This document shows, in pieces, positions 839-48,689 of a stretch of DNA of 64,000 nt. Location of the stretch: NCBI GenBank assembly GCA_044228285.1, contig JBGAVD010000005.1, positions 193,648 through 257,647 of the forward strand. The letters run 5' to 3'. The stretch is from Chlorobiota bacterium. Its GTDB lineage: Bacteria > Bacteroidota > Ignavibacteria > Kapaibacteriales > NICIL-2. The notes under the pieces are model-generated. The model ran no database searches. It was not told where the DNA came from and worked only from the letters and a program-made list of their open reading frames with translations. The position numbers and the translations under genes were made by a program. The stretch's first letter is position 1. Each line of letters opens with the position of its first letter.

Positions 839-862
839 TCGTTCAACAGTCTTTTTCTATAG

Positions 863-892
863 AAGCGCGGTTTCACCGCGCTTCCTTTTTAT
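863..892 (+). terminator. Rho-independent terminator hairpin (gaagcgcgg-tttcac-ccgcgcttc) followed by a T-run
   Basis: Perfect GC-rich inverted repeat immediately followed by cttttta, 25 nt after the permease stop codon. Confidence 0.6.
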
Positions 893-904
893 GGAGCATA
901 GCAC

Positions 905-2365: not shown

Positions 2366-2379
2366 GACGCGGCTTTTTG
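2354..2379 (+). terminator. Rho-independent terminator; the hairpin (agccgcg-tgaga-cgcggct) encloses the TGA stop codon of the permease and is followed by TTTTT
   Basis: Inverted repeat gccgcg/cgcggc with the stop codon TGA (2363-2365) in the loop, then a T5 run. Confidence 0.6.
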
Positions 2380-2430
2380 AATGATCATTACTGTCCGTGT
2401 TGCCTTGAGAAGACAGTAGGGATAACTTTA

Positions 2431-3582
2431 CTACTTAGCAATCGGAATCTTGAAGTAGACTGACAATCCGAGGCTCGCAGAGACGGGACGTGGATTGTTT
2501 TGGGAGTTGTATTTCCATGCACCATTTGCTGACTGGAGATCGTCACTAAAGATATAGTTCCGTGCGTCGCTATAAATGGCTTTAAGCGGGTAGCTTGCCA
2601 TGAAACGGAAATTGACACGACCCCAGTTTTGCTCGGTTACAGGTATGTCAGTACCAATTTTTAATGCAGCTACGCTACCCAAATAGTTCTCATATGCTGC
2701 ACTGTTCTGACCAAATGCTTGGCCAACATAAAAGAGACCAAGACCCGAGTTGTCGGCACCTATTCTAGTACCATTCGTACCGCTTCCATTACGCGTGGCC
2801 ATGGAAAATCCGGTTGTATCGCGAGTGACGTTGACCTCTGCATCAGAACCAAGCTTCGTTGTTCCACTAGTTGACGATTGGAAGCCCACACCAATGACAA
2901 TACCAGCCAGGTTCAAGTGTGGAAAGAAGTCAAGATAATTGTATGTCTCGTGAACCGTGTATGCATCTTGTGGCGTGGATGAAAGAACTTGATCGGCGGA
3001 CGGACGGCTGAGATAAGAGTATTGATGCATACCGAGACTTAATCCGAAGCTTATCGTTCCAAGTGCGGAGAATGGCACTAACAATGTCGCACCATATTCA
3101 GGTAGTGCAGCTACCTTCACATCTGTACGACGACCATTGGCAACTTCAGTATTGATCCCACCTCCAACAAGTCCGAAGTACGGCCCTATGAATATACCCC
3201 AACGTTCTTTTGCTGTTTTTGGAACAACCGTTGGTGTAATAAGTGTAGTGCCGTTCGAATTGTCTGGAGATACAACAATTCCAGTTCCAGTTCTGCCGTT
3301 TTGTCCACCTTGATTGGTGCTATCGACATATGCCAGTGATCGCTCAACTTGCGCAATCCCGTGAGCTGTTAGAGAAATGGCTTCACTCGAAGGTGCGCTA
3401 AAAACACTTCTGTAAGAACCAGTGAGTTCGTCTGCTAAGGATAGAGAAACAACCCGTTGATCTCTTGTTTGCACGGCAACATCCTGGCTAGAGCTAGCAC
3501 GCTCTCTAACAGAATCGCTTAGCAATGGTGAGCTAAGAGCAAGAACAAGGAAAGCCGCGGATGGTAGGTATTTAGGTAGCAT
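2431..3582 (-). CDS. Hypothetical secreted/outer-membrane protein (possible beta-barrel)
   Basis: 383-aa ORF with an N-terminal signal peptide (MLPKYLPSAAFLVLALSSPLLS). It is Gly/Ser/Thr-rich with alternating amphipathic stretches. I recognise no catalytic motif. Confidence 0.4.
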   Translation of the reverse strand: MLPKYLPSAAFLVLALSSPLLSDSVRERASSSQDVAVQTRDQRVVSLSLADELTGSYRSVFSAPSSEAISLTAHGIAQVERSLAYVDSTNQGGQNGRTGTGIVVSPDNSNGTTLITPTVVPKTAKERWGIFIGPYFGLVGGGINTEVANGRRTDVKVAALPEYGATLLVPFSALGTISFGLSLGMHQYSYLSRPSADQVLSSTPQDAYTVHETYNYLDFFPHLNLAGIVIGVGFQSSTSGTTKLGSDAEVNVTRDTTGFSMATRNGSGTNGTRIGADNSGLGLFYVGQAFGQNSAAYENYLGSVAALKIGTDIPVTEQNWGRVNFRFMASYPLKAIYSDARNYIFSDDLQSANGAWKYNSQNNPRPVSASLGLSVYFKIPIAK

Positions 3583-4214
3583 AAGACATCATTATTAGTG
3601 AGTAGTATGATGACAACATTGATTAGTATTCGTTCGGTTAAGCTCAAAATATGATGTTTATGAAGAGTTGCAAGCGTGTTTTATTAACAATTCACCAAGA
3701 GATTGCAATAAGTTGGAGGTAGGGAATAGACCATGTATGACATTGGAATGAGCACTCTTATCCACCGCCGTGCTTATTCCAGTGTATGAAAGCCATTCGT
3801 TAGGACGCTCTCGGTTTCAAGAGAGTATCGTTGCAAACAATGGAAATATATGCTCTCAAAGAGGAGATTTGCCAGGCACAACAAACTCGAAAGTTCGCAA
3901 TCCCATGATAACATTGGCGCACGGAGTATCTCCGTAATTCGAGTTTGTTCGAAACACTAACAGACAAGCTAGTTGAGTTGGAGATACTACAGTCGCGTAG
4001 GGTACTTCTCTTGTGGACTTTTCAACACTAGTTCTCGAATGCCTCTCAATTCCGTAAATTGCGCCACTAGGTTCAGCATTGATTGCATATACTGGCTATT
4101 TCGAAGCTGGTTCTTGTGTTCTGCTCTCTGTGAGCGAACGCCTCCTCGATGCGATCAGTAAAGTGTATACATCATCGAATCTAGGACGACTTTTACTGTA
4201 CAACGGGAAGCAAT

Positions 4215-4904
4215 ATGGCATCGAAGCGCGCACTTTTCGGAACGACAGTCATGCAGAAGTATATCGTGGCATTCAGCGGTTTAGCGATCGTTGGATTCTT
4301 GATAGCTCACTTGGCTGGCAATCTGTTGGTCTATGCAGGACCTTCAGCATTCAATAAGTATGCACAAGGATTACGAGATCTAGGTGCTTTGCTATGGCTT
4401 ATGCGACTCGGAACTTTCGTTGCATTCGTCATGCATATTGTGTTTAGCGTAAAACTAAAAGGACGCAATGCAGCCGCTCGACCAACAAACTACAGTGTTG
4501 TTAGTACCCAGGCATCTACGGTTTCGTCAAGAAGCATGGTCTATACGGGTCTAACCATTCTGACCTTTGTACTCTTTCACCTTGCGCACTTCACCTGGGG
4601 CAAGGTTCAACCGAAACATTTCGAAGGTTCTTGGATGTTGCCTGATGGACGTCTTGTTCACAATGCGTACGCAATGACTGTCGCTGGATTTCAAGAAACA
4701 TCGATTAGCGTACTCTATCTTGTTGCAGTTACTGTCGTATTCCTTCATCTCAATCATGCGGTTCAAAGTGCAGTCCAGACTATAGGATTCAATCACCCAC
4801 GGTATCGTCCGTTGGTTCTCAACATCAGCAAGGTTCTTTCGATAGTGCTTTGGTTAGGCTTTTTCTCGATACCGATTAGTGTGTTGATCGGACGTGTTAA
4901 CTAG
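4215..4904 (+). CDS. frdC: Succinate dehydrogenase/fumarate reductase cytochrome b membrane subunit (type B, Bacteroides FrdC-like)
   Basis: 229-aa polytopic membrane protein with His residues in the TM helices. It lies immediately upstream of, and overlaps or abuts, the flavoprotein subunit gene. This is the operon order C-A-B of type-B SQR. Confidence 0.7.
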
Positions 4905-7968: not shown

Positions 7969-9993
7969 ATGAAATCCTTTTACAGAACTGCATCGTTATT
8001 GCTTCTTGTCAGCCCGTGTCTGCATAGTCAACTATACTCTCAAGTACTTGATTGGGGTAATGCTCTAGGACCCTACAGTGGTTCTGTGTATGCTCTGAGC
8101 GCAACTGGGACTATGATTGTCTGCGGAGGTTCAAATGGCGTGTTTCGATCCCTAAATGAAGGTTTGACATGGTCCTACTCGCCAGTCCCTCACGCCAATG
8201 TCATCAGCAGCAAACAATGCGATGAGATCGATTTGATTGGAACCTTTGGCTCAGGTGTCTATAAAAGTTATCGCGGTGCAATCTGGGATAGTACGAACAA
8301 CGGACTTGGCAACTTGAATGTATGGGCAATGATAAAGGCGGCAGACACATTGTATGCTGGTACGAGTTCAGGTGTGTATATCACAACAAACTGTGGCGTT
8401 GATTGGACGATTCTCGATAGTGGAATTCAGAATCGAGTCGTTAATTGTTTTGCAGTTACTCCAACAGCTATTTATGCAGGAACCACCTCTGGTTTGTATC
8501 GACACTTGCGAGGGATAAAAGGTTGGATACGTTCGGACAGCGGTTTGGGAAACTTCGTAGTGAAGTGTCTCAGCAGCAATGGTAAGGATATTGTTGCTGG
8601 AACATTAGCTGGTGTATTTCGCTCAACTGACGCCGGGCGAAGTTGGCAGGGAATCAACACTGGTTTGAGCGCTCAATCAATCCGATCGATTGTATGGAGT
8701 CCGCAGTACTTGTTTATAGCCACGAACCAAGGCTTATTCAGGAGTTCAAACTCAGGCGATAGCTGGCATGCAATACCTATTAGTCCATCTGACTCGAACA
8801 CAACGGCTCTAGCTCTTTCAAACGAGAAAGTCTTTGCAGGTACCGTTGCCTCGGGTCTGTTTATGAGCACAGACAATGGTCTGACCTGGGAGTTGTGTGA
8901 GGTTGCGGGATCTGTCGTTCGAGCACTGCATATGCATGAGAAAACACTCCGTTGCGGGAGTTTCCTTGGAATATGGCAGTCAAAGAGTGAAGGCGAAAAT
9001 TGGACACACTCGAGCCTAGACTCAGTTGTTCCTATTTCATTGATTAACCATTCGAACTCGCTGTTTTGCGCCACTATGAGCCGTGGCGTGTTTCGTTCAA
9101 CGGACAATGGCATTTCATGGCATGCACAGAATTCGGGCTTAACAGATCTAAAAGCTAGGTGTTTAGTTGTACATCAGGCTTCACTCGTACTAGGTACAAG
9201 CACTGCGATTTGGAAGAGCATTGATAGTGGTGTCACGTGGGGACTTTCTAGCACGGGAGTTCCCCAAACACAAGTGAATTCCATTTGTTCGATTGCTAAT
9301 GTGCTCCTAGCCGCCACACAGGGCTACGGCATCCTAAAGAGTAGCTACGGAGGTGCTTCGTGGATTTCATCTAATAGTGGTATGCGTGACTCAACCGTGC
9401 TTTGTCTTTACTCGAAGAACAACATCGTATATGCTGGCTCTTCAACGCGTCACGTATACTGGAGCACTGATCAAGGTGAAACATGGTTGACGTTGCCTGA
9501 TCCAACAGACCGAGGCTCCGCTGTTAGAGCAATTCAAAGTGTTGACTCATACTTGATTGTTGCTATTGACTCGGTTGGCTTGATGATGACCTCAGATAGT
9601 GGTAAGATCTGGCACAGCGCCGGGTTACAAGACTACTCCGTGTACTGCCTGATCAACGATAAGAACACCCTGTACGCTGGCACCAATGGCTCTGGAGTTT
9701 ATCGCTGTCGTGCACAATCGTTAGTAGAGGTTGAAGAGTTTCCCTTCGCTAAATGTGTTAACATAAAGCTGATACACGACAAGCTCCAGGGACGTTTGAG
9801 GATTGTTCGTGACATGCTGAGTGCAGGTGCCTGTATACAGATGTTTAGTCTTGGTGGCCAACTTGCTGTTGAGTCGGCGTCTTGCTCAGAACCTGAGTGT
9901 ACGATCGATGTTTCTAGTCTACCGAATGGACTCTACTTTGTTCGCATTGCGGAAGGCAATACGATCAATAACCTAAAGATCCTTTTTGAGTAG
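7969..9993 (+). CDS. Secreted BNR/Asp-box repeat (Ycf48/sortilin-like beta-propeller) protein with type-A T9SS C-terminal sorting domain
   Basis: Signal peptide. About eleven SxDxGxTW Asp-box repeats (STDNGLTW, STDAGRSW, SIDSGVTW, and others). The C-terminal ~80 aa (IQMFSLGGQ...LPNGLYFVRI...KILFE) match the T9SS Por_Secre_tail pattern. Confidence 0.6.
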   Translation: MKSFYRTASLLLLVSPCLHSQLYSQVLDWGNALGPYSGSVYALSATGTMIVCGGSNGVFRSLNEGLTWSYSPVPHANVISSKQCDEIDLIGTFGSGVYKSYRGAIWDSTNNGLGNLNVWAMIKAADTLYAGTSSGVYITTNCGVDWTILDSGIQNRVVNCFAVTPTAIYAGTTSGLYRHLRGIKGWIRSDSGLGNFVVKCLSSNGKDIVAGTLAGVFRSTDAGRSWQGINTGLSAQSIRSIVWSPQYLFIATNQGLFRSSNSGDSWHAIPISPSDSNTTALALSNEKVFAGTVASGLFMSTDNGLTWELCEVAGSVVRALHMHEKTLRCGSFLGIWQSKSEGENWTHSSLDSVVPISLINHSNSLFCATMSRGVFRSTDNGISWHAQNSGLTDLKARCLVVHQASLVLGTSTAIWKSIDSGVTWGLSSTGVPQTQVNSICSIANVLLAATQGYGILKSSYGGASWISSNSGMRDSTVLCLYSKNNIVYAGSSTRHVYWSTDQGETWLTLPDPTDRGSAVRAIQSVDSYLIVAIDSVGLMMTSDSGKIWHSAGLQDYSVYCLINDKNTLYAGTNGSGVYRCRAQSLVEVEEFPFAKCVNIKLIHDKLQGRLRIVRDMLSAGACIQMFSLGGQLAVESASCSEPECTIDVSSLPNGLYFVRIAEGNTINNLKILFE

Positions 9994-10126: not shown

Positions 10127-11386
10127 TTACTCTCCAGAGAGTACAACGACCTTACTCTCTACACCGCTATTCGTGCGCAATCGTACTATGTAGGAACCTG
10201 CTGAGAGGAGAGTACCCTTTGTATCGCGACCATCCCACTCTGTATAATAGCTACCTGCCTCCAACGAAGTGTTCTGTTCGAGTGAACGCAGATGCATACC
10301 ACGTACGTCATACACATCAATGGCAACAGTGCTGGCTTGATCTACATGATAGTGCACTCGGGCAACATCACGGAAAGGGTTAGGACTAACATGGTCTATG
10401 TATGTAGCTAGTGCGTTTCCTGATGTTTCGACAGGAACTGCGTCGATGATCTGCTTCAATTCTCGATAGAAGAGTCCGCCACCAGAGGTACCAACAAATA
10501 CAGTTGTAGACGTTGATGCAAAAGCGCGTATATCGGTGAAAACAAGTTGCTCGTTTGCAGACTGCCAGGAAGAAGCATTATTCTTCGACAAGAATACACC
10601 GCCGCCGTCAGTACCCGCAAAAATGACTCCATTGCTGACGGTCATTGCGTTAATGGTAACATTTGTCAGACCATTGTTCATCTGCGTCCAGCTCATACCT
10701 GAATTATTGGACACATATGCGCCTTCAGCAGTACCCGCCACGATGACTGTACCATTGACAACAAAGGAACTCACACTGTTCGCGGCGGAACCTAAACCCG
10801 TTCCAACCGGTATCCACATCGCGCCAGCGTCCGTTGAAACGAATACACCACCTTGAGTCGCAGCAAGAATGTTTGTTCCAAGTGCAGCAACTGTGTTGAC
10901 CGAAGCGGAAGGCAAGCCTGGACCTGCTGGGTTCCAATCTGTTCCGTTATTTGTAGACAGGTATACACCGGTTGATGTGCCAGCGACTAAGATGCCCGGA
11001 GCCGCAACGAGCGCAGTTACGTTTGTATTCTTTAGTCCGTTATTCACAGCAGTCCACGTGTTTCCATCGTTGTTTGTTACGAAAACACCACCTCCATACG
11101 TGCCTGCATACATCGAGCTACCGTTGCCGGCAACAGCAAAAGCGCGGAGATTTGACATACCATTGGTAGCCTGTGTAATACTACGACCATTGTCCTTGGA
11201 CACATACACACCACGTGTACTCGTGCCAGCAAAGAGAATAGAACCATTGAGTGCCAGTGACTTGATGGTGATGCCAGAATCAAGATCTGGACACGTCGCT
11301 TGCTTCCATTGCGCAGAAACTGAAACGCATAGGATAAGACTCATGAAAAAGGGAAGTGCTGTACGCACTGATGAAACTCTAAACAT
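10127..11386 (-). CDS. Secreted BNR/Asp-box repeat protein with type-A T9SS C-terminal sorting domain (paralog of 7969-9993)
   Basis: Asp-box repeats (TNNDGNTW, STNNGTDW, STDAGAMW, SNNSGMSW). The C-terminus (SPNPF ... DVYDVRGMHLRSL ... GSYIVRLRTNSG...KVVVL) is a T9SS CTD. The start is taken at the internal Met preceding the signal peptide MFRVSSVRTALPFFMSLILCVSVSAQ. The ORF could instead extend to 11455. Confidence 0.6.
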   Translation of the reverse strand: MFRVSSVRTALPFFMSLILCVSVSAQWKQATCPDLDSGITIKSLALNGSILFAGTSTRGVYVSKDNGRSITQATNGMSNLRAFAVAGNGSSMYAGTYGGGVFVTNNDGNTWTAVNNGLKNTNVTALVAAPGILVAGTSTGVYLSTNNGTDWNPAGPGLPSASVNTVAALGTNILAATQGGVFVSTDAGAMWIPVGTGLGSAANSVSSFVVNGTVIVAGTAEGAYVSNNSGMSWTQMNNGLTNVTINAMTVSNGVIFAGTDGGGVFLSKNNASSWQSANEQLVFTDIRAFASTSTTVFVGTSGGGLFYRELKQIIDAVPVETSGNALATYIDHVSPNPFRDVARVHYHVDQASTVAIDVYDVRGMHLRSLEQNTSLEAGSYYTEWDGRDTKGTLLSAGSYIVRLRTNSGVESKVVVLSGE

Positions 11387-11625
11387 TGTATGTACCAGAA
11401 AAAGTGTAAGTGTCGAAATTGAGAATCGAGTCAGTTGAGCGTAGTTGAAACTCATACTTCTGGCTCTGTAGAACTACATCAAAACAAAGATATATGCGTC
11501 GTGAACGTTCTAGCACTCCGTAGAAATACCGAACCTTCAATAGAATTGTGCGCCGATGCGCACTCTTAACGGAAAACTACGTACTGATAACCATCCGACT
11601 TCATTCATGCGGTACTGACACGAGC

Positions 11626-17307: not shown

Positions 17308-18144
17308 TTATGCGTTGTCAAACGCGGTCAACTTCACACGCAAATCATTGCACACCTGTGTATGGATTTGGCAAATGCGGCTTTCAGTAAGTGAGAGCAA
17401 TACACCAATTTCCTTGAACGTCAAATTCTCGTAGTAGTAGAGCGTTACTACCAAGCGCTTACGCTCTGGAAGGTTCTTCAGATAGCGCATGAGGAAGGCC
17501 ATACGTTCTTCATCTGCCATGCGTGTCAATGGATTCTCGTAATCCATGTCAGGAATCTCCTGCAGGAGATCACGCTCATCACCATCGTCAGACAAACCAA
17601 GAGAAGACTTGGATTCGTTCATTGATAGGGACGCAACAGCAGCTGCCGCTGCACTAAGATAGGTTTGATACTCTTCAAGGCTGACATTTAGCCTCGTCCG
17701 GATTTCCTCTTCGCTAACCTCGCGACCAGTCTCTTTACGAAGTTGATCTGATACCGCAACGAGTTCATGAGCTTTCTTTCGTGCAGTGCGGGAGAGCCAA
17801 TCAAGTCTGCGCATTTCATCGAGTACGGTTCCTCGAACGCGGGGCATTGCAAAGGTCTCAAACTTGATTCCTCGTTCTGCTTCGAAACGATCAATGGCTT
17901 CATTGAGTCCCAGAATTCCCACATGCAAGAAATCCTCGTCACAGAGAATTGCATTGGTAGGGAGCGACATTGTATGCAAGGTATAGCGTACTAACCACAT
18001 GTAGTTAAGCATCAGACGCTTCTTAGCCTCTGAGCGCTTTGCAGCTGAGCTTCTTTTGGAATGAAACTCTTTCCATGCTGCTCGAACCGCGCTGTCGTCT
18101 ACACTAGGCGTAGGTTTCGTGAGTACTGTTTCCTGATCCACCAT
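17308..18144 (-). CDS. fliA: RNA polymerase sigma factor, FliA/WhiG (sigma-28) family
   Basis: Region 2 (FLHVGILGLNEAIDRFEAERGIKFETFAMPRVRGTVLDEMRRLDW), region 3 (LNVSLEEYQTY) and region 4 (LTFKEIGVLLSLTESRICQIHTQ) align closely with FliA. ATG with an AGGAG RBS. Confidence 0.8.
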   Translation of the reverse strand: MVDQETVLTKPTPSVDDSAVRAAWKEFHSKRSSAAKRSEAKKRLMLNYMWLVRYTLHTMSLPTNAILCDEDFLHVGILGLNEAIDRFEAERGIKFETFAMPRVRGTVLDEMRRLDWLSRTARKKAHELVAVSDQLRKETGREVSEEEIRTRLNVSLEEYQTYLSAAAAAVASLSMNESKSSLGLSDDGDERDLLQEIPDMDYENPLTRMADEERMAFLMRYLKNLPERKRLVVTLYYYENLTFKEIGVLLSLTESRICQIHTQVCNDLRVKLTAFDNA

Positions 18145-18181
18145 CGATTAACTCCTGTCGTTTTAAACTATCTTTTCTTTA

Positions 18182-18574
18182 TCACTGTAGTTCGTTACCA
18201 GTGAGCATTTGATTGATTCGCTCTTCGCGCTCTTGATCCATTGCTCGCTGCTGAGAGTCCAATACTTGCTGTTCTGCTAAAGCCTCTTCATGTAGTCGCT
18301 GAATACGCTCTTCAGCTTCTTTCATTTTCACTCGATGGAGCACCCCAACGATCGTTACCATGATGATTCCCAGGCATACACTTACTCCAACAAAGACTAC
18401 AAGTGAGCGGTACATCGCCGTCGCAAAATCTGCCCGTGATCCAATCGTAAAAAGCAGATACGAAACGCATGCGGATAGGGTACTTACTTGGAAAAGTAGA
18501 CCTATTGGGTAGCGCGAACGAGCCGCTAAGTCCTTGTCCGAGCTTGATTTATCTGATTTCTTTGCTTTTGCCAT
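18182..18574 (-). CDS. Hypothetical small membrane protein (two predicted TM helices + C-terminal charged coiled-coil)
   Basis: 130 aa. Lys/Ser-rich N-terminus, TM1 IGLLFQVSTLSACVSYLLFTIG, TM2 LVVFVGVSVCLGIIMVTIVGVL, then an EAEERIQRLHEEALAEQQ... heptad-like segment. It occupies the position between flhF and fliA. Confidence 0.5.
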   Translation of the reverse strand: MAKAKKSDKSSSDKDLAARSRYPIGLLFQVSTLSACVSYLLFTIGSRADFATAMYRSLVVFVGVSVCLGIIMVTIVGVLHRVKMKEAEERIQRLHEEALAEQQVLDSQQRAMDQEREERINQMLTGNELQ

Positions 18575-18635
18575 GGTTCGTACACTAGGTGTCCATCAAG
18601 TCACTATCCAAAATTGTGCCATCAAAATGAACGCC

Positions 18636-19820
18636 TTATGCGCTTCTGGTAATTTGGGGCTGGAAAACGCTATCCACTATTCGTTCTGGAGTTGCAGCTT
18701 TTATCGACTGAGGGATTCCACGGCCGTCTGTGAGAAAAGATACCGGAACGTTGTAAGTGTGTAGCGCTTGCAGACATGTACCTTGCAATCTTGAACAGTC
18801 GACTTGCGTAAGGACGAGCGCGCACTCAGGGAGTGCTGAGGCCATTCTCATCCATTCATGTGCTGTTTTGTCGTTACAAACTGCGGATACAGTAAGTAGA
18901 ACCGTGTCAGCGTTTGTAGCACTTCTCAATTGCTCGATGCGTGCCGCGCTTTCCGAATTGGCACTATCTAACTGTACTTCTATAAAGACGAAGTCTTGAT
19001 CGTCAGTGTTCTGCATTAATTCCAATAGTTGTTGATTCGAACTATAGGACTCAAGGCGAACGCTTTGAACGTTATCTGGTAGTTGAGCATGTGCACTTGA
19101 AGGCTGTAGTATCAGTGCATTTGAATTCATGGTGAGCGCGAAACTAGCCGAGAGTTTCGCGCACAACGAGCTTTTGCCGCTACCGGGCGCGCCACTGACG
19201 ATGACAATCTTCGGTTGCGAACTTGGTCGTAATGGGTTTGATGTGCGGAGCGAGCTGCAGAGATGAGAGCGCAGTGCTTGACGGAGTATGTCAACTTGAG
19301 CTTCTATGCCTTGTTTATGCAAGTAGGAAAGCAGCTCGTTGCAATGTGTTTCACTGAAGCCAGCCTCCAAAAGCTCCGATTGAAGCACTAAGAATGCAGG
19401 GGGAGTAAAATTCCGTTGCTGAGAGCTTTGAACGGTGCTCAGATTCTCAATTGCTTTCCGTAGAGAAGCGATTTCCGATTGAATGGACTGGGTGTCAGCT
19501 GGAACTGACGCCGAGTAGCGGGTACGTAACTGAGTCTGAGGTGCTTGCGCGGGCGCATCTGGATTCTTTGTCACAGAAGTCGCAAAAAGTGGATTTCTGC
19601 GTTCGCCGGCAGCAAAGGCAATATCGGAGGGCACACGACGTTGTTGGCGGTGCAATTCCAACTCTTCGGGTTCTATGCCAGCCACTACTTCGGTAACTGG
19701 TAGACTCCCAGGTTCGAGAATCTCCCGCGAGGATAGGATAATTGCCTCTTCCCCCAATTCATTGCGCATTTGCTCCAAGCTATCGCGCATGTTTCGTCCA
19801 TGAAACTTCTTGATTCGCAT
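18636..19820 (-). CDS. flhF: FlhF-like SRP-type GTPase (flagellar biosynthesis regulator homolog) with degenerate G2/G3 motifs
   Basis: N-terminal B-domain MRIKKFHGRNMRDSLEQMRNELGEEAIILSSRE closely matches the FlhF N-terminus (B. subtilis MKIKKF...ELGNEAVIL). P-loop GAPGSGKSS retained. The G4 region VLTQVD and C-terminal NVPVSFLTDGRGIPQSI match FlhF. G2 (DTYR) and G3 (DTAG) are not conserved. Confidence 0.75.
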   Translation of the reverse strand: MRIKKFHGRNMRDSLEQMRNELGEEAIILSSREILEPGSLPVTEVVAGIEPEELELHRQQRRVPSDIAFAAGERRNPLFATSVTKNPDAPAQAPQTQLRTRYSASVPADTQSIQSEIASLRKAIENLSTVQSSQQRNFTPPAFLVLQSELLEAGFSETHCNELLSYLHKQGIEAQVDILRQALRSHLCSSLRTSNPLRPSSQPKIVIVSGAPGSGKSSLCAKLSASFALTMNSNALILQPSSAHAQLPDNVQSVRLESYSSNQQLLELMQNTDDQDFVFIEVQLDSANSESAARIEQLRSATNADTVLLTVSAVCNDKTAHEWMRMASALPECALVLTQVDCSRLQGTCLQALHTYNVPVSFLTDGRGIPQSIKAATPERIVDSVFQPQITRSA

Positions 19821-19929
19821 ATCTCTTTCAGACCAGTTATATGTCTGATAGAGTGTAGTAATAATTATGCCAAGAACGGATGTTGACTTGTCGGGAACAT
19901 GTGAGGAGCTTGTTTGAGGGGCGTATTCA

Positions 19930-19965
19930 ATAAAAAAAACGACTGAGAGTAGCTCTCAGTCGTTT
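19930..19965 (-). terminator. Rho-independent terminator for the giant T9SS protein gene
   Basis: On the - strand: stem aacgactgagag/ctctcagtcgtt with loop, followed by a T8 run. Located 28-60 nt downstream of the stop at 19993. Confidence 0.55.
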
Positions 19966-19992
19966 CTGATACTGTGCATTAAGCAAGGAGCT

Positions 19993-22900
19993 CTAGTGTG
20001 TTATCACGAGGGGAAGCGTATGTAAACTGCCGGCGCTTGTCATTCGCACACGGTAAACACCGGACGCAAACGCATGAACGTCGACGAGATACGTGTACTC
20101 TCCAGCTTTATGCTGACCATTCGTAAGGACAGCGACAACTTCACCCTTCTCATTTACAACATCCAACGTTGTGTGCGTTTCGAACCCAACAGCGTAGGAG
20201 ATTTTTGCAAATCCATCTTGAGCTGGTTGAGGTGATACAGAACGAAGAGCGAATGGGGTTTCGCTGACTTTGACAAAGCGTCCACCCATATAGCAACCTA
20301 CAATACTAGTATTCGCAGAACCAAGGTTAACGAGAACACAAGCTTCGCGACCGTTTGGCTTGAAGTCTGCCAATGGCGCAGTGAAGGACTGAGTCTTCAT
20401 ACTATCAATGAGAATCTGCATTTTGACTTTCACCAAATCGCCTGACGCACTCACTGGTGTACTTCCACTTGCAGTGACAATGAGATCAACCGAGTCCGGA
20501 GAACTCGTGTTTACTTGAACTGCAGAATCGATTTTCCAGCTGTTGTCGAACATTGCACCGAGTTGAGCCGTATTCTTCATATAGATGATATCAAATCGAT
20601 TGTAGCGGATACCAGCCGTGAACGACTTAACACCCGCATCCGCCCATTGCGTTGAGACTGCGCTCAGCGAAAGCTCGTTTACCGAGCCATCTGTTGCCAT
20701 ATCCATTGTCGCCTTCGCAAACGCAACGTTTGCAGCAATGGTCGAGACTTTAGTAGACGCCAAAAGAGAGTCTGTGAGCACGAGTCCATCATTAAATCTT
20801 GCATGGACATAAGCCTTATATGTACCTGTTCGCAAAGCGGTTGGATTAAAGACCACATCAAGTTTCACTGAAGATGCAGGTTGTATTGTGATTGGATTGC
20901 CTGGAGTTGGCGTACCGCTGATACTAAAGTTTGCAGCATCCGGTCCGTCTATCCACACTGAATCCAAGATGCGATCGGAGTTCGTCGCACCTGCGGCCGC
21001 ACTATTACCAACGGTGAACACTCCAGCTGGATGATCGCAAGCAGTATTCAAGCCGAAATCATGTCCTTTAACATACGGTGGATTCTGGATGATGCCGTAT
21101 GCCGTAACCATTACTATGGTCTCAAAGGTTCCGGTTGGATTTGCAGTGATAGGTTCTGCATTGTGAACGATGCGAACACGAACATGTTCTGGACCAGCCT
21201 TCGATGCAGTAAACCGCACTGGGATGAGGAATGGAGCCGAACCAATGTCGATAACGGTATCCTTTGGTAAGGTTCTCGTCCAGGCAAAGTCGCGAGGATA
21301 GATACGCTTTACATCATCGTCTGCCTCGTTGATGAAGTCGATACTATGGATAGTCAGCCAGCGAGAGGTACTAGTGTTTGAAATACTCACAAACTCACCT
21401 GCATTTGCGGATACGATAGAGTTGCCTGCAAGCTGAGGAGTCTTAATCTCTGCGTCTAGACATTGAATCTTCTCTAAGTAGCCGTAACCTGTAAGAAAGG
21501 CTTGCTTGGTAACATCGGTCGGGAAGGTGCCTTGAATCAAAGGAGTTTTTGGTCCTTCAACGGTTGGGAGGAACAATACGTCTGCCCGGACCGAATCAAG
21601 ACGGTTCTGGTACACAATAAATGGGATAGCGCGTTCCGTTCGTGTAACTGTATACTCAACCGGAATTGATGATACAACGTCGACGGCAGTACACGTAACC
21701 TGTTGAGTACCACTATTGCCAATGTAACAAGGAAGGGTCTTTGAAACACCCAATCGAACGCTGTCCCAATCATTTCCTATCACATAGGGTCCTGGAGCGC
21801 TTGAGCTTCCAAGCCATGTAGAAATAGGATCATCCTTCGGACTACTTGGTGCGTCACTTAAGAACGGTATGTCAAGTTTCCACTGGTCTTCTGTGGTAGG
21901 GGAGAAGCACACTTCTCGAAAAATCACGCTCTGACCTGGTGGAATAACGATCGTAAATGGAGGAGTTGTAGGTTGATTTTTATTGATGCTAAAAGGAGGA
22001 GTGATCTTCGTCTGATCTATACCTGTAACATGCAACGTATCCGTTCCAACGTTCTTAATAGAGAGATTTCCAGGAATACTACTATTGCAGACCGATTCCC
22101 CAATTCCCACGGTGCCAGCATCAAAATCACCAACTTGGATGTGTGGCATTACACCACGACCTCTAACGTAAAAGGCAAACGGAGCGCATGTTTCCTTTAC
22201 GAGAAGGGAGTCGAAATCTAAGTCTTGTGGAGTACTTACCTCTCTGGTAGGCAGGTAGCTAAGAGTGACGAGAATCGAATCATGCGCCTTGATGACAAGT
22301 CCTGTTGAGTCCGCAGCAGTGTCCGATTTCACACTAAACTCAGCTCCCTTAAGCATGTAAATTTTCTTTACCTTGATTGCTGAATCGTTGTCATTACGAA
22401 TCCAGACTTTCATCGACTTCGATGTACCTACTCGTACGTCACCGAAGTTTACTGGATCTGGATTCAAACGCACACGCGGCGCGAACCACGATACGCTATC
22501 GTAAGTAAAATTGAATGCGCGGTCAATGACATAGAACTTTGCGTATGCATCCTTGCTTTTGTCGATGACTTCGAGTCGAAATGTTGTTTTGAAGTTACTT
22601 GAAGAAACAGGTACTTTGCCGTCTTGTACTTCTTTGCCGTCCGAATGTGTAACGACGATGCGGTAGTTGAAACTACGAGCGTCAGCAGAATCGACGAAGT
22701 CTATCTCCCTAATACCAGTTTCAACATGATCTAAGGTATCATTAACCTTGAAGTTTCTTACTTCAGTACCTTGATAAGTGAAATCTCCACACTCCTCCGA
22801 TCTCGTCAATACAGGAGGCAGGGTATCAAACACATTGAGTTGCTTAAAGGCTGTGGCGGCTGGCCAGCCGTACGAGTCAAATTGGCCATAACCATAAATC

Positions 22901-24387
22901 TCGCCACCGAATGGGGTGTCGCCAAGAATGGTGTGTGGACCATTTGAGATACCAATTCGGGCGTAGTACAGATTTGTTCCTGGAATGCGATTACCTAAAA
23001 AGCTAGGAGTAGTGTTGTAGACGAACTTACCGTCGATCTTGATCGACTTCAGCAGCTTTGCAGAAGCATCTGAGGAGTCACCAATCGCAATCAAGCTAAA
23101 ATAGTGCGTCGTGTACGCAGGATTCGAAGGACATTGGAATATTGTTCCCTTCGTGTACTGTTCCTTTGCTACACAATAAATAGTAAAGGGATCAAAGTTG
23201 TTGTCGTTATCCCAATTTGCTGACGGACATTCGTGCATCAGTTGGAATGGCTTGTTTCCTTTGAAGATAGCCATTCCAACGATTCCTTTGGATTTAGCAG
23301 TCGCAGAACCAGGTCCATCTGATGGTTCCTCTGGAGACTTTGGCAAAGAGCGAACTTCTCCGGCTCTCATACCCAGCACCCCTGTCGGACCATTCAAACG
23401 TTTGCCTGTTTTAAAATCGTAACTCTCCCAGGTGATGTTCGTTCCATTCTCTTTTGCTACTGCTCGGTACAGGTCACCAAGACCGCCACGGACAAACTCA
23501 ACGGTGACGTAGGTTTTACCCCATTGTTCAACCGGTGGTACCATTTCGCAAACGTGATCTCGCCCTCCTCCAAGATTGAAGCAGGGGAACATGGTTCTCT
23601 GGTGAAAATCAATGAAACCGATAGGTTTCGTAGCCACAACTCTAGTACCGCTTAAATCGAATTGGCCTCTGGTCGTACCGTCTCCTTGGACGATGTACGC
23701 TTGACCACGCATCAGATTCACTTGCCAATGATCGCCATATTTATGTCCACCTTCGGTTCGTTTTCCTAAGCCCGTTGTTGCATACTCTCCATATGACGCT
23801 GAACGCGCATAAATATCAACCAGAGTGTTGTCTTCAGATGCAAAGAAGCAAAAGCCAGCCTTCCAATTACGGGCTTCATTGAAATCTGGGTAGGTGAGGG
23901 CATAGTATTCTTTGCCCCAAGATTGAACAGGGATTGCTAGGTATCCATCTGAAGAAACCTGTTTACCATTGTAGACATACACTGATACGTAATCATCAGC
24001 CTTGATGCTGATGCACAAATCTGAAACAGTCTCACTACCGATGACTTCCGGGATTGGAAAAACGCCACCAGCTCCATCAATGACAGTAACTTTTCCAGCT
24101 GTGACACGCAACCTTGACTTGAATCCTAAAGCAGGAACTTCATAATCAAAGGATGTGTTCTTAGAGGACGTGACATAGATTTCACGAGCGGTAGCTCCAC
24201 AGCTCGCGCAGTCATTCAGCGGTAGGCAGAACACAAAATCTCGACCTTGAGAGCCATTGTTCAAGATCCATTCTGAAGTAGGTTTCCCGCCCTGCACCGT
24301 TGGTGCTTTTTTCACTTGAGCACTAAGCGGATACAGCGCAAGAAGTGCAACGACCACCAAACGTATCCACAAGTATCTAAACGCCAT
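19993..24387 (-). CDS. Giant (1464 aa) secreted cell-surface/adhesin-like protein with T9SS C-terminal sorting domain
   Basis: Signal peptide MAFRYLWIRLVVVALLALYPLSAQ. The N-terminal ~500 aa are Cys- and Gly-rich with a beta-helix-like character. The middle has repeated Ig-like / all-beta segments. The C-terminal ~80 aa (LDVVNEKGEVVAVL...GEYTYLVDVHAFASGVYRVRMTS...LPLVI) match the T9SS CTD. Confidence 0.7.
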   Translation of the reverse strand: MAFRYLWIRLVVVALLALYPLSAQVKKAPTVQGGKPTSEWILNNGSQGRDFVFCLPLNDCASCGATAREIYVTSSKNTSFDYEVPALGFKSRLRVTAGKVTVIDGAGGVFPIPEVIGSETVSDLCISIKADDYVSVYVYNGKQVSSDGYLAIPVQSWGKEYYALTYPDFNEARNWKAGFCFFASEDNTLVDIYARSASYGEYATTGLGKRTEGGHKYGDHWQVNLMRGQAYIVQGDGTTRGQFDLSGTRVVATKPIGFIDFHQRTMFPCFNLGGGRDHVCEMVPPVEQWGKTYVTVEFVRGGLGDLYRAVAKENGTNITWESYDFKTGKRLNGPTGVLGMRAGEVRSLPKSPEEPSDGPGSATAKSKGIVGMAIFKGNKPFQLMHECPSANWDNDNNFDPFTIYCVAKEQYTKGTIFQCPSNPAYTTHYFSLIAIGDSSDASAKLLKSIKIDGKFVYNTTPSFLGNRIPGTNLYYARIGISNGPHTILGDTPFGGEIYGYGQFDSYGWPAATAFKQLNVFDTLPPVLTRSEECGDFTYQGTEVRNFKVNDTLDHVETGIREIDFVDSADARSFNYRIVVTHSDGKEVQDGKVPVSSSNFKTTFRLEVIDKSKDAYAKFYVIDRAFNFTYDSVSWFAPRVRLNPDPVNFGDVRVGTSKSMKVWIRNDNDSAIKVKKIYMLKGAEFSVKSDTAADSTGLVIKAHDSILVTLSYLPTREVSTPQDLDFDSLLVKETCAPFAFYVRGRGVMPHIQVGDFDAGTVGIGESVCNSSIPGNLSIKNVGTDTLHVTGIDQTKITPPFSINKNQPTTPPFTIVIPPGQSVIFREVCFSPTTEDQWKLDIPFLSDAPSSPKDDPISTWLGSSSAPGPYVIGNDWDSVRLGVSKTLPCYIGNSGTQQVTCTAVDVVSSIPVEYTVTRTERAIPFIVYQNRLDSVRADVLFLPTVEGPKTPLIQGTFPTDVTKQAFLTGYGYLEKIQCLDAEIKTPQLAGNSIVSANAGEFVSISNTSTSRWLTIHSIDFINEADDDVKRIYPRDFAWTRTLPKDTVIDIGSAPFLIPVRFTASKAGPEHVRVRIVHNAEPITANPTGTFETIVMVTAYGIIQNPPYVKGHDFGLNTACDHPAGVFTVGNSAAAGATNSDRILDSVWIDGPDAANFSISGTPTPGNPITIQPASSVKLDVVFNPTALRTGTYKAYVHARFNDGLVLTDSLLASTKVSTIAANVAFAKATMDMATDGSVNELSLSAVSTQWADAGVKSFTAGIRYNRFDIIYMKNTAQLGAMFDNSWKIDSAVQVNTSSPDSVDLIVTASGSTPVSASGDLVKVKMQILIDSMKTQSFTAPLADFKPNGREACVLVNLGSANTSIVGCYMGGRFVKVSETPFALRSVSPQPAQDGFAKISYAVGFETHTTLDVVNEKGEVVAVLTNGQHKAGEYTYLVDVHAFASGVYRVRMTSAGSLHTLPLVITH

Positions 24388-24641: not shown

Positions 24642-25532
24642 ATGGCTGGAGAATTTGCGGTGGAATTTGATTCCAATTGCTACACGAACGGCCCACGTCC
24701 GGTGGGCGAATTCAGGAACATTGCAACGAACATTCGGCGTGATATAGTCAAGCAGCTTGTGCTTGCCGGAAGCGGACACTCAGGTGGACCTCTTGGTTCG
24801 GCGGACATCTTTGCTGTGATGTACTTTGGTGGCTATATGCGCTATAACACCGCAGATTGGTTCGGGACAGCCCACGACCGTTTTGTTCTCAGCGCTGGCC
24901 ATATGTGCCCGGTTATGTACGCAACATTGGCAAATGCTGGCGCTTTTCCAAAGTCGGAGCTGGCTAGCCTCAGAAAGTACGGAACACGCCTTCAGGGGCA
25001 CCCGGGTCGAGATATGGGCCTACCAGGAGTTGAAACTTCCTCAGGTTCTCTGGGGCAGGGAATCTCCATTGCTGTTGGTATGGCGATGGCTGATAAACAT
25101 CTCGACAAAAACGACCACCGTGTGTTTAGCCTTACCGGCGACGGCGAGCTTCAAGAGGGCAGCGTCTGGGAAGCGGCAATGGCTGCTTCGCACTACAAGC
25201 TGGACAATTTCTGCTGGATCATCGATAACAATGACTGTCAGATCGACGGTAGAGTTCCAGATGTACTTAACGTGTATCCGATTGTAGACAAATGCGCTAG
25301 CTTCGGATTTGATGTGGTGCACTGTGACGGACATAACCATACCGAACTCGTTGCAGCATTCGACCACTTCCTGGATAACCAAAAGAAGGGCACTGGAAAA
25401 CCAACGGCGATTGTTGCCCGCACGTATATGGGCAATCCTGTTTCGTTCATGAATGACAAATTCGAGTGGCATGGTAAACCACCTAGCTGGGAACAAGCGA
25501 AGATTGCTCTGGACGAACTTGTCCTGAGTTAA
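24642..25532 (+). CDS. Transketolase, N-terminal (TPP-binding) subunit
   Basis: GHSGGPLGSADIF, TPP-binding GDGELQEGSVWEA, and a split-gene arrangement with the next ORF. Confidence 0.85.
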   Translation: MAGEFAVEFDSNCYTNGPRPVGEFRNIATNIRRDIVKQLVLAGSGHSGGPLGSADIFAVMYFGGYMRYNTADWFGTAHDRFVLSAGHMCPVMYATLANAGAFPKSELASLRKYGTRLQGHPGRDMGLPGVETSSGSLGQGISIAVGMAMADKHLDKNDHRVFSLTGDGELQEGSVWEAAMAASHYKLDNFCWIIDNNDCQIDGRVPDVLNVYPIVDKCASFGFDVVHCDGHNHTELVAAFDHFLDNQKKGTGKPTAIVARTYMGNPVSFMNDKFEWHGKPPSWEQAKIALDELVLS

Positions 25533-25615
25533 GCCGAAGCGCTTATAGAGCAGCTCCGTGTGCGCGTACTCTGTTGTTAGCCTTAACTGTACCATCGACT
25601 TTGAAATCAATACTT

Positions 25616-26626
25616 ATGCAAAACATCGAAAAACTTGGAATGAAACCCACGCGCTTTGGCTTCGGCGAAGCTCTTGTGGTTCTTGGCGAACGAAACCCAA
25701 ACGTGGTCGTACTTGGTGGTGATATTACTGGCTCGGTTATGACGAGTTATTTTAAAGAAAAATTTCCTGAACGGTTCTTCTCGATTGGCATTGCTGAGCA
25801 GAATGCGACAACAATAGCAGCAGGCTTGGCGCTGAGTGGAAAGATTCCTTTCTTTGCATCCTATGGCGCCTTCTGCGCCTTGCGTAACGCCGACCAACTG
25901 CGTATCAGCGTTTGTTATAACGAAGCCAACGTCAAAATTGGTGGCGGTCACGCTGGCATTAGTGTTGGACCTGACGGAGCAACCCATCAAGTGTTGGAGG
26001 AAGTTTCTTTCCTTCGCGCTCTGCCACATATGACCATGGTTGTCCCTTGCGACTACCTAGAAGCGAAGAAGGCAACTATTGCTTGCGGTGAGATGGTTGG
26101 ACCAGCGTACATACGCTTTGGCCGTTCACCTGTACCGTTGTTTACAACCGATTCTACACCATTTGAACTGGGCAAAGCTATACAGTTGACAGATGGGAAC
26201 GATGTTGCGATTATGGCTAATGGTGCGATGGTTTGGGAAGCTATTGTAGCTGCAACTGAGCTGTCGAAAAAGGGAATCAATGCTCGTGTGGTGAACGTTC
26301 ATACGGTGAAACCTATCGACGTACAGTGCATCACAACGGCTGCACGTGAGTGCGGATGTATCGTTAGCGCTGAAGAACATCAGGTGCACGGCGGACTCGG
26401 TGCAGCAGTTGCTGAAGTCGTCGTAAAGAATGCACCAGTCCCAATGGAGTTCGTTGGTGTCAAGGACAGCTTTGGCGGCAGCGGTGAGCCTGAGGAACTG
26501 ATGGTGAAGTTCGGCTTGACGTGGAAGGAAATTTACGCATCTGCTTTGCTTGCAATGCAACGACGCGATAAAGGTTCTTCGGGATTTCGCAAGCTGAATG
26601 AAGTGGCGAGCTATAACGAAGCCTAA
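25616..26626 (+). CDS. Transketolase, C-terminal (pyrimidine-binding) subunit
   Basis: FGIAEQNATTIAAGLA and the C-terminal domain. The start is taken at ATG 25616 (MQNIEKLGM...). The ORF extends to 25574. Confidence 0.85.
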   Translation: MQNIEKLGMKPTRFGFGEALVVLGERNPNVVVLGGDITGSVMTSYFKEKFPERFFSIGIAEQNATTIAAGLALSGKIPFFASYGAFCALRNADQLRISVCYNEANVKIGGGHAGISVGPDGATHQVLEEVSFLRALPHMTMVVPCDYLEAKKATIACGEMVGPAYIRFGRSPVPLFTTDSTPFELGKAIQLTDGNDVAIMANGAMVWEAIVAATELSKKGINARVVNVHTVKPIDVQCITTAARECGCIVSAEEHQVHGGLGAAVAEVVVKNAPVPMEFVGVKDSFGGSGEPEELMVKFGLTWKEIYASALLAMQRRDKGSSGFRKLNEVASYNEA

Positions 26627-29366: not shown

Positions 29367-30482
29367 TTAGCTGATAAGCGTCTTTGGATCGGTGTATTTC
29401 ATTCCAAATGGCTCAGCGACTGCTTCATAAACGATGTGCCCATCCAAGAAGTTGAGACCTAACCAGAGTTCATGGTTACTCTTCACTGCATCTTTCCAAC
29501 CCATGCCTGCCAATTGCAAAGCATAAGGAAGTGTTGCGTTTGTCAATGCAATTGTTGAGGTGTACGGAACAGCGCCTGGCATGTTCGCAACACAATAGTG
29601 AACAACGTCATCAATGACGAATGTTGGGTTCTCGTGAGTTGTAGGCTTTGTTGTTTCTATACAACCACCTTGATCAACTGACACGTCTACAAGAACGGCA
29701 CCCTTTTTCATGGTTGGGAGCATATCGCGAGTAACCAAGAAGGGAGCTTTTGCACCTGGGATAAGAACTGCACCAACGACGACGTCTGCTTCAACAACAG
29801 CCTTCTGAACGTTAGCTGGAGTTGACATCATGGTGATGACATTCTTTGGCATTACGTCATCGAGATAACGCAAGCGGTACAAGTTGTTGTCCATGATGGT
29901 TACACGAGCACCAAAACCCGCTGCAATTTTCGCGGCATTGATACCCACAATTCCACCACCGAGTACAAGAACGTTACCAGGAGCTGTGCCAGGAACACCG
30001 CCGAGTAGAACTCCACGACCGCCCATTGCGCGCTCAAGGTACTTAGCACCTTGTTGAGGAGCCATACGGCCAGCAACTTCGCTCATAGGGATCAGGAGAG
30101 GGAGTGAACCGTCGATCTTCTGAACTGTTTCATATGCGATACAGATACTGTTCGTCTTTACCATTGCTTCCGTGAGTTCACGATTTGCAGCAGCATGGAA
30201 ATATGTGAAAACGATTTGACCAGCGCGAATCAAGTCATATTCCTGCTTGATTGGTTCTTTAACCTTCATGATCATCTCAGCTTTAGCGAAAACTTCCGCT
30301 GCTGTTGGGATGATGGTAGTACCAGCTTTGATGTAATCTTCGTTGGTGAAGCCACTACCCAAACCACCATTGTTTTCTACAAGCACAGTGTGACCATGTT
30401 TAACGAGCATATCAGCGCCACCTGGGGTGAGGGCAATACGATTCTCATTGGTTTTGATTTCCTTAGGAACTCCGACGATCAT
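29367..30482 (-). CDS. ald: Alanine dehydrogenase
   Basis: N-terminus MIVGVPKEIKTNENRIALTPGG and NAD-binding VLVLGGGIVGINAAKIA. Length 371 aa. Confidence 0.9.
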   Translation of the reverse strand: MIVGVPKEIKTNENRIALTPGGADMLVKHGHTVLVENNGGLGSGFTNEDYIKAGTTIIPTAAEVFAKAEMIMKVKEPIKQEYDLIRAGQIVFTYFHAAANRELTEAMVKTNSICIAYETVQKIDGSLPLLIPMSEVAGRMAPQQGAKYLERAMGGRGVLLGGVPGTAPGNVLVLGGGIVGINAAKIAAGFGARVTIMDNNLYRLRYLDDVMPKNVITMMSTPANVQKAVVEADVVVGAVLIPGAKAPFLVTRDMLPTMKKGAVLVDVSVDQGGCIETTKPTTHENPTFVIDDVVHYCVANMPGAVPYTSTIALTNATLPYALQLAGMGWKDAVKSNHELWLGLNFLDGHIVYEAVAEPFGMKYTDPKTLIS

Positions 30483-30800
30483 AGCGAAACCTTTCGATTG
30501 AGTGAGAAAATTGTCTTGTGTGAATCATACAAAGTTACGGGGAAGCAGGGAATGCTAAGTGAAGAATTGCAGGGCAAAGTGGGCATTTCCACCTCTTTTT
30601 CAAGGAAAAATGAATCGTACATACTTTCTGGATACCTTCCCTTTGCGTCTAAAGATGGTCGAGGTCTTACAGTGTGTGGGAGAGTGTCCGATACACTCAA
30701 AAAAAGTCTGAATGGTTCACAACATGTTAAATTGTGTCCTATTCAAGGATGAATCGTCATTGCGATTCTGATCAACGGATCCATCAATACAGAGACTGCA

Positions 30801-48617: not shown

Positions 48618-48689
48618 GAGGCTGCTATACGGTGTTCTGCATTCATTCTCGGGCTATAATATCCAATAGAACTGCCGATAATGTAGAGC

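Follow-up and report, generated by a model that had tools for sequence, protein, structure and literature searches.

This report concerns three adjacent genes in a 64,000-nucleotide stretch of DNA from a Chlorobiota bacterium (assembly GCA_044228285.1, contig JBGAVD010000005.1, positions 193,648 to 257,647), referred to below as the window. Genes of this kind normally serve to place flagella and to switch on the late flagellar genes. An earlier note on this DNA had described the trio, on the minus strand, as flhF, a gene for a small protein with two transmembrane (TM) helices, and fliA, and all three open reading frames (ORFs) were recovered at the positions it gave. The first gene, designated flhF* (18636-19820), encodes an FlhF-family protein of 394 residues with degenerate GTPase motifs. 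It is followed by the gene for a FlgV-like 2-TM protein of 130 residues (18182-18574), and fliA (17308-18144), encoding a FliA/WhiG-family sigma-28 factor of 278 residues, comes last. The sigma-28 assignment was borne out by a TIGR02479 match (NCBIfam FliA/WhiG) of 210.6 bits, above the cutoff of 189.6, and by the presence of Pfam sigma-70 regions 2, 3 and 4 (PF04542, PF04539, PF04545).

The exact FlhF* sequence is known from one NCBI contig only, 480,751 bp long. Relatives of it are rare, with only seven found at E <= 1e-30 among 1.84 billion representative proteins, and the best match among GTDB species representatives was 54% identical. The metagenome-assembled genomes (MAGs) of these relatives are labelled Chlorobiota, Candidatus Kapabacteria/Kapaibacterium or Bacteroidota. 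No relative was found in the JGI metagenomes by FlhF-like alignment, and a FliA scan of the same metagenomes returned FlhG-containing or unrelated loci only, with best identities of 59-60%. The earlier note had suggested looking for conserved synteny, and this was found: the order FlhF-like protein, small protein, sigma-28 is kept at seven related loci (L006, L001, L002, L166, L003, L010 and L169) at 28-54% FlhF identity (BLASTP). Four of them, L006, L001, L002 and L166, also share the wider gene order of the window, with transketolase, a giant surface protein, the operon, and genes for transglutaminase-like, LOG, GCV_T-like and S8 peptidase proteins.

Marker proteins were then mapped onto 80 FlhF loci from species-representative genomes and 80 FliA loci from JGI metagenomes. 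Three arrangements were distinguished. Classic clusters (type A), known from Ignavibacteria, Melioribacter and Bacillota among others, run fliPQR-flhB-flhA-flhF-flhG-(small 2-TM)-fliA. Isolated operons (type B; Kapaibacterium and related MAGs) lack flhA and read flhF-flhG-2TM-fliA, usually followed by genes for an HDOD protein and a GAF-histidine kinase. The FlhG-less form (type C), flhF-2TM-fliA, comprises the window and the seven related loci. In the window, split transketolase genes (N and C parts; 24642-26626, plus strand) serve as a synteny anchor, and such genes stand directly upstream of flhF in the type-B loci L005, L018, L041, L047 and L052. A giant-protein homolog comes between transketolase and flhF in L094 and L095, which gives these two loci the same order as the window. 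Because this transketolase-adjacent position is shared with FlhG-containing relatives, the window operon is a positional ortholog and neither a paralog nor a stray fragment. Judged by gene order, its counterpart is the isolated flhF-flhG-(2-TM)-fliA operon that lies beside transketolase throughout the class Kapabacteria (Bacteroidota; MAGs labelled "Chlorobiota"). The suggestion that flhA had been replaced here by a terminator and a giant gene did not hold, as flhA was already absent from the locus in the ancestor (type B has no flhA).

The description of the first gene as a clear FlhF homolog was right as to the family but hid a strong divergence. Indeed, TIGR03499 matched residues 1-237 of FlhF* at 99.1 bits, under the equivalog cutoff of 174.15 bits. 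Pfam SRP54 matched residues 203-386 at 48 bits and was covered over profile positions 1-195 of 196. By sequence (phmmer against the PDB), the best solved structure was B. subtilis FlhF (2px0). The AlphaFold2 (AF2) model of FlhF* had a predicted local distance difference test (pLDDT) score of 82.7; its top Foldseek match was S. putrefaciens FlhF (8r9r), and 2px0 and 2px3 were matched at TM-scores of 0.77-0.79. FlhF* is thus predicted, on the model, to keep the GTPase fold (NG) of the signal recognition particle family.

The GTPase motifs fared differently from one another. The P-loop (G1) is kept as GAPGSGKS (codons at 19170-19193, minus strand), whereas the G2 position reads QPSS instead of DTYR, the G3 position EVQLD instead of DTxGR, and the G4 position TQVD instead of TKxD, with the lysine gone and the aspartate kept. 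The same pattern is found in the nearest relatives. The P-loop GxPGSGK[ST] is kept and G2 is lost in the window, L006, L001, L002 and L166 (protein P0153). In these proteins G3 is replaced by EVQLD, ELQCD, EMAIP, ELHCD and ELTLS, and the G4 lysine is gone (TQVD, TQLD, SQLD, TNLD and TGVD). In L003 the P-loop lysine (GSGATS), G2 and G3 are all lost. The motif-degenerate FlhFs form a tiny subclade of about 6 lineages, and FlhF* is, from its alignments, a candidate pseudo-GTPase. A separate case was noticed in a Legionellales MAG (L069, 1004-2125), where an FlhF in the normal flhA-flhF-flhG-fliA context has degenerate G2 and G3 motifs (IYLDLDKNGG and VLIDSSFSF). Decay of the G motifs is therefore not unique to the Kapabacteria clade.

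The N-terminus of FlhF* (codons 1-75, at 19596-19820, minus strand) is the best conserved part of the protein. Between the window and its clade relatives, identity was 55-88% over residues 1-75, 12-30% in the linker, 9-38% in the N domain and 23-50% in the G domain. The conserved 75 residues include the start MRIKKF...ELGEEAIILSSR...EVVAGIEPEEL...AAGE; the motif MRIKKF...ELG..A.IL is conserved across the 80 FlhF loci, and TIGR03499 aligns from residue 1 of FlhF*. The AF2 model places a beta-alpha-beta-beta-alpha-alpha domain over residues 1-70, with block-mean pLDDT values of 85-95 over residues 1-60. In S. putrefaciens FlhF, the first 44-60 residues are structured and bind FliG (PMC11236974). 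By analogy, residues 1-75 of FlhF* are probably the counterpart of this FliG-interaction domain.

The 130-residue protein has a basic N-terminus, two TM helices (TM1 at about 24-44 and TM2 at about 54-80; Kyte-Doolittle peaks centred at residues 33-35 and 59-75), and a Q/E-rich tail of 49 residues with 12 D/E, 7 K/R and 8 Q. It contains D49 and R56-S57 within ...RADFATAMYRSLVVF..., and the TM2 arginine is conserved in all FlhG-less relatives. No curated family matched it in Pfam or NCBIfam. Its orthologs occur at every related locus, between flhF or flhG and fliA, and in type A and B loci they occupy the flhG-fliA junction. With hhalign, the type-C proteins aligned to the type-B proteins with a probability of 99.5%, and to the 65-80-residue proteins inside Ignavibacteria flagellar operons with a probability of 91.6% (E 8e-7), the TM2 arginine being aligned. 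Type-1 FlgV proteins are described as having two N-terminal TM helices, a TM2 arginine in an 'RS' signature and a polar tail, and their gene lies where the flhF/flhG sub-module meets that of sigma-28 (PMC10802407). Members of the FlgV family have been reported only from flagellar operons (PMC10802407, PMC10655999). We therefore class the 130-residue protein as FlgV-like with Type-1 features, a label that rests on comparison with its Ignavibacteria equivalents and, for the named FlgVs, on their description. It had been proposed that this protein replaced flhG. While flhG is indeed absent, the 2-TM gene is the resident of the flhG-fliA junction, and flhG was simply deleted.

The intergenic gaps within the trio are 61 and 37 nt, and no internal terminator was seen. 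Short gaps without terminators fit a single operon, flhF*-flgV-like-fliA. Upstream, an intrinsic terminator (19935-19967, minus strand; a 15-pair stem, then a T run) closes the preceding gene, which encodes a surface protein of 1464 residues (19993-24387, minus strand) and forms a separate transcription unit. Between this terminator and flhF* lies a putative sigma-54-like promoter, TTGGCATAATTATTAC (19858-19873, minus strand), 37 nt upstream of the flhF* start, with TGGCAT at -24, 5 nt of spacing and TTAC at -12. It belongs to a conserved element found before flhF, TTGGCAYRRTTWTTAC. The corresponding pattern, TGGCAY-N5-TTDC, has 2 matches in the 64-kb window against 1.2 expected by chance. It was found 29-99 nt upstream of flhF at 8 of 8 FlhG-less loci and 12 of 18 type-B loci, in regions that otherwise could not be aligned between loci.

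FlhF and FlhG form a conserved molecular switch and are 'consistently encoded together' (PMC12826062). The DQAxxLR helix of FlhG is required to stimulate the GTPase of FlhF (PMC12826062). In classic clusters FlhG has this helix, or GQAERL in Ignavibacteria. It is absent from all isolated-operon FlhGs (L005, L017, L018, L026, L047, L050, L052, L060, L066, L074, L082, L086, L089-L092, L094 and L095). Since the helix is missing from FlhGs that are still present, a change in the FlhF-FlhG GTPase cycle seems to have preceded the loss of flhG. Type-B FlhFs already vary at catalytic positions, with DTYK or DNYK at G2 and the G3 arginine lost. The two genes that follow fliA can be traced in the same way. 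Genes for HDOD/HD and GAF-HisKA-HATPase kinase proteins come after fliA both in classic clusters (L004, 13326-15584; L023, 13068-15310) and in type-B loci (for example L026, 13630-15894, and L052, 13257-15800), with L169 at 3963-4832. From this recurrence, the two may be a conserved pair of signalling genes that goes with the sigma-28 sub-module. In the subclade of the window, neither follows fliA any longer.

Taken together, these loci can be arranged as a graded series, from the classic cluster of L004 through the isolated operons (L005 and others) to L169, in which flhG is lost but the HDOD gene and the G motifs are intact, then L010, in which flhG and the HDOD gene are lost and the G motifs are intact, and finally the degenerate forms. 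Read as a sequence of events, the activator helix would first have gone missing from the isolated-operon FlhGs, after which flhG itself would have been lost, then the HDOD and kinase genes, and last the catalytic GTPase motifs of FlhF would have decayed in the window's subclade.

The three proteins have diverged at very unequal rates. FliA was the most conserved of 18 regional proteins compared. Its identity to the window protein is 92-95% in L006, L001 and L002, 83% in L166 and 75-80% in L003, L010 and L169. Among the window, L006, L001 and L002, FliA at 92-95% can be set against transketolase at 81-93%, FlhF* at 37-54% and the FlgV-like protein at 57-75%. The latter ranges from 36 to 75% across the FlhG-less clade and from 44 to 75% among its motif-degenerate members. 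In classic clusters, pairs with FliA at 90-100% have FlhF at 87-98%, and pairs with FliA at 70-80% have FlhF at 54-71%. FliA is 75-95% identical within the FlhG-less clade and 37-57% identical to isolated-operon FliAs. From these uneven identities it follows that FlhF has been relaxed except at its N-terminus and that FliA has been under tightened constraint. The strongest selection thus appears to be retained on FliA in the first place, and also on the FlgV-like protein and the N-terminal domain of FlhF.

The earlier note had reported no further flagellar gene in the 64 kb, and the present census agrees. Of the 47 non-overlapping ORFs in the window that reach 150 residues, 41 were scanned against Pfam, together with the 130-residue protein and two ORFs that are probably spurious (30195-30752 and 36159-36596). 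None of these 44 was a flagellar gene, although six had no family match, and inspection of the intergenic-gap ORFs gave none either. The ORF list and the Pfam scans showed no ParA/MinD-type ORF that could be flhG, either in the operon or in the window. No gene for rpoN or an enhancer-binding protein was seen in the window, and neither tRNA genes nor Rfam families were detected there. A 'FlgD_ig' Pfam match at 10127-11455 (minus strand) was rejected as a flagellar gene, as it is the C-terminal Ig domain of a BNR/sortilin-type surface protein.

Sigma-28 promoters were also sought. The exact pattern TAAA-N15-GCCGATAA has no match in the window, and relaxed patterns gave only scattered matches there. 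The single good match lies at 48655-48682 (plus strand), where TATA-N15-GCCGATAA agrees with 11 of 12 positions of the sigma-28 consensus and ends 8 nt before a histidine kinase gene (48690-50285, 531 residues). By a rough estimate, a single 11/12 match is within chance expectation. The kinase was considered as the operon-linked GAF-kinase and rejected, as it is not an ortholog of the kinase that follows fliA in relatives. The targets of this sigma-28 presumably lie outside the window.

The reading that we favour is that the trio is a reduced but still flagellar operon, to which we assign a probability of roughly 0.55. The retained FliG-binding-type domain, the FlgV-like protein, the promoter and a FliA under selection all argue for flagella. 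Under this reading, the operon would start at the sigma-54-like promoter just past the terminator of the surface-protein gene and would be switched on by an enhancer-binding protein together with sigma-54. FlhF* would act as a nucleotide-independent adaptor, its N-terminal domain recruiting FliG and early basal-body parts; the FlgV-like protein would associate with the basal body in the membrane; and FliA would transcribe late flagellar genes elsewhere in the genome. Such a dispersed arrangement has a parallel in the class, where flagellated Kapabacteria with the isolated operon carry their structural flagellar genes at other loci. In Ca. Thermonerobacter thiotrophicus (Kapabacteria) the flagellar genes are all present but 'not in a single cluster'; according to its annotation table, flhF is on contig 1000104, while flhA/flhB/fliR are on contig 1000061. 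Flagella and chemotaxis are also encoded by a second Kapabacteria MAG. The alternative, raised in the earlier note, of a lineage with scattered flagellar regulators thus holds at the level of the class, where the isolated operon is the norm. The same note had argued that Bacteroidota bearing a type IX secretion system (T9SS) are classically non-flagellated; this does not carry over, as T9SS and flagella coexist in Ignavibacteria and Kapabacteria.

Several observations weigh against a flagellar role. Structural genes of the flagellum were seen neither in the window nor within roughly 10 kb of the operon, on either side, at the eight FlhG-less loci. (A search for homologs of the L004 FlhA gave a best 120 that were all Ignavibacteria-type, at 71% identity or more, which says nothing about the genomes in question.) Seven paddy-soil Kapabacteria MAGs have been reported without flagellar assembly genes. 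The progressive reduction of the locus (flhG, HDOD, kinase, GTPase motifs) would also fit loss of the organelle. In no classic cluster has FlhF diverged nearly as much, for a given divergence of FliA, as it has here. When normalised to transketolase, FliA has evolved about 3 times more slowly in the clade than between isolated-operon lineages, which hints at a changed regulon. Relaxed sigma-28 scans of the window and 13 related loci gave scattered matches, none at a conserved position. Finally, although the -24 element and the spacing of the promoter are of the sigma-54 type, the -12 element is TTAC or TTTC and not the canonical TTGC; sigma-54 dependence is therefore something that we infer.

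Most of these points also feed the main competing explanation, namely that flagella were lost in the FlhG-less clade and the trio was repurposed, with FliA driving a non-flagellar regulon and with FlhF*, by way of its N-terminal domain, and the 2-TM protein serving as membrane modulators or localisation factors for another system. We consider this a real but distinctly less probable possibility than a reduced flagellar operon. The successive disappearance of flhG, of the HDOD and kinase genes and of the GTPase motifs, the high conservation and low normalised rate of FliA, the decoupling of FlhF from FliA, the MAGs without assembly genes and the bare surroundings of all eight loci speak for it. 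Sigma-28 factors without flagella also have precedents, in Chlamydia sigma-28 and Streptomyces WhiG. However, repurposing would require three flagellum-specific proteins to have been co-opted jointly, and FlhF* is best conserved precisely where the Shewanella protein binds FliG. Reports of FlgV relatives come from flagellar operons only. Moreover, the promoter is unchanged from that of the FlhG-containing relatives, the window and the related loci yielded no gene that a sigma-28 promoter would mark as a target, and the region upstream of the adjacent giant gene has no sigma-28-like promoter. The tentative picture would be of a small flagella-less clade in which strong purifying selection kept a sigma-54-driven cassette of nucleotide-independent FlhF pseudo-GTPase, FlgV-type membrane protein and hyper-conserved sigma-28. 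The cassette would serve some other programme, such as a developmental switch or the control of surface or T9SS-secreted proteins. If true, FlhF and FlgV would here be seen for the first time to function apart from a flagellar system.

Two further explanations are very improbable. A decaying relic without remaining function would account for the lost GTPase motifs and operon genes and for the low FlhF identity between relatives, but all three frames are intact in about 8 lineages with FlhF identity down to about 30%, FliA is 75-95%, the FlgV-like protein 36-75% and the FlhF* N-terminal domain 55-88% identical, and the promoter is conserved; frames that stay open and conserved over such divergence are unlike pseudogenes. 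Likewise, a diverged paralog, with a canonical flhF-flhG pair in a normal flagellar cluster elsewhere, would explain why FlhF* scores under the equivalog cutoff, but the locus has the same transketolase neighbour, promoter, FlgV-like gene and fliA as the only flhF locus seen in FlhG-containing Kapabacteria, L169 and L010 carry an intact GTPase at this very locus, and none of the best 120 relatives of a Kapabacteria FlhG lies on a contig with the length of that of the window, L006, L002 or L001 (480,751, 524,917, 140,150 and 24,769 bp), which is weak negative evidence.

The window operon can be compared with several known systems. It shares with the corresponding sub-module of the flagellar superoperon (L004; Spirochaetota, Bacillota; PMC10802407) the order FlhF, FlgV-type 2-TM protein, sigma-28, as well as the FlhF N-terminal domain and NG fold, the TM2 arginine and the FliA family. 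Unlike that sub-module, it has neither an upstream flhA nor flhG, its FlhF lacks G2, G3 and the G4 lysine, and its neighbours are a surface-protein gene on one side and housekeeping genes on the other. With the isolated operon of Kapabacteria (L005, L026, L047, L052, L094 and others) it shares the position beside transketolase, the sigma-54-like promoter, orthologous 2-TM and FliA proteins and, in some members, the giant-protein neighbour. That operon, however, keeps most of the GTPase motifs, flhG (without DQAxxLR) and the genes for the HDOD protein and the GAF kinase, all of which the window has lost. The flhF-flhG-flgV-fliA operon of Campylobacter and Helicobacter (PMC10802407, PMC10655999) is likewise short, regulatory and separate from the structural genes, and in it too the gene for a small 2-TM protein comes after those for FlhF/FlhG and before fliA. 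Its Type-2 FlgV has no TM2 arginine, whereas the window protein has one. Those bacteria have FlhG and an active FlhF GTPase and are demonstrably flagellated.

The sigma-54-dependent class II operons of Vibrio and Pseudomonas contain flhF, flhG and fliA. They resemble the window operon in their -24/-12-type promoter, with TGGCA and 5-nt spacing, and in having fliA at the operon end; they differ in that the window -12 reads TTAC/TTTC and its sigma-54 dependence is putative. Chlamydia sigma-28 and Streptomyces WhiG are similar in that a strongly conserved FliA/WhiG-family sigma factor has no flagellar genes nearby. There, however, no FlhF or FlgV lies beside the sigma factor and the organisms are non-flagellated, whereas for the window organism a lack of flagella is only a possibility. 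The most unusual features of the window, which the earlier note had missed, are that the GTPase motifs of FlhF have decayed, that flhG, otherwise reported to follow flhF in every case, has been lost, and that a sigma-54-like promoter is present. The combination of flhG loss and FlhF GTPase decay with a conserved N-terminus and a hyper-conserved FliA is a new variant, not found in the searchable literature.

The giant gene next to the operon recurs in many of the related loci. Its 1464-residue product has IgGFc_binding, ASH and choice-of-anchor D domains; its own Por_Secre_tail match is 21.1 bits, under the 27-bit cutoff, and in precomputed annotations of its orthologs this domain is confident in L002 and 'weak' in L001. 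Homologs stand directly or a few kb upstream of flhF in L006, L001, L002, L166 and L010, in the last of which the gene (200-4060) is about 5.7 kb upstream, and also in FlhG-containing loci (L074, 1-303; L082, 2350-4899; L094, 5197-7680; L095, 5201-7648; L047, 766-4797). None was found at L003 or L169. This recurrent adjacency may reflect old synteny or a functional link. The gene was rejected as an operon member because a strong terminator and a separate promoter lie between and the adjacency is missing in L003 and L169. Upstream of the giant gene, a conserved element gives the impression of a Bacteroidota-type housekeeping promoter.

Other genes of the window deserve brief mention. A second BNR/sortilin-type surface protein is encoded at 7969-9993 (plus strand), with a Por_Secre_tail match of 26.6 bits, just under the 27-bit cutoff. 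At 34897-36072 (minus strand), a response-regulator receiver is fused to a SpoIIE/PP2C phosphatase (RsbU-like). This protein could feed a partner-switching cascade that acts on an alternative sigma factor, although its surroundings showed no gene for an anti-sigma factor or an antagonist. The ORF at 44732-48526 (plus strand) encodes a 2-oxoglutarate dehydrogenase E1 of 1264 residues with an N-terminal 2-oxoacid acyltransferase (E2 catalytic) domain. Such an E1/E2-catalytic fusion is known from actinobacterial enzymes of the OdhA/Kgd type. Finally, in the 720-residue protein encoded at 55583-57745 (plus strand), the only domain recognised is an N-terminal NTPase domain of the STAND/AAA_16 type.

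Altogether, the window and its relatives represent a natural exception to the pairing of FlhF with FlhG, and the relatives document the order in which the switch was dismantled, from loss of the activator helix to loss of flhG and decay of the GTPase. With the conserved element TTGGCAYRRTTWTTAC as a guide, a putative flagellar tier under sigma-54 could be mapped in Kapabacteria. If the lineage is flagellated, FlhF can work as a nucleotide-independent adaptor, and FlhF* would be a natural separation-of-function allele for the FliG-binding domain. If it is not, the trio would be a rare case of reuse of flagellar placement and regulatory proteins.

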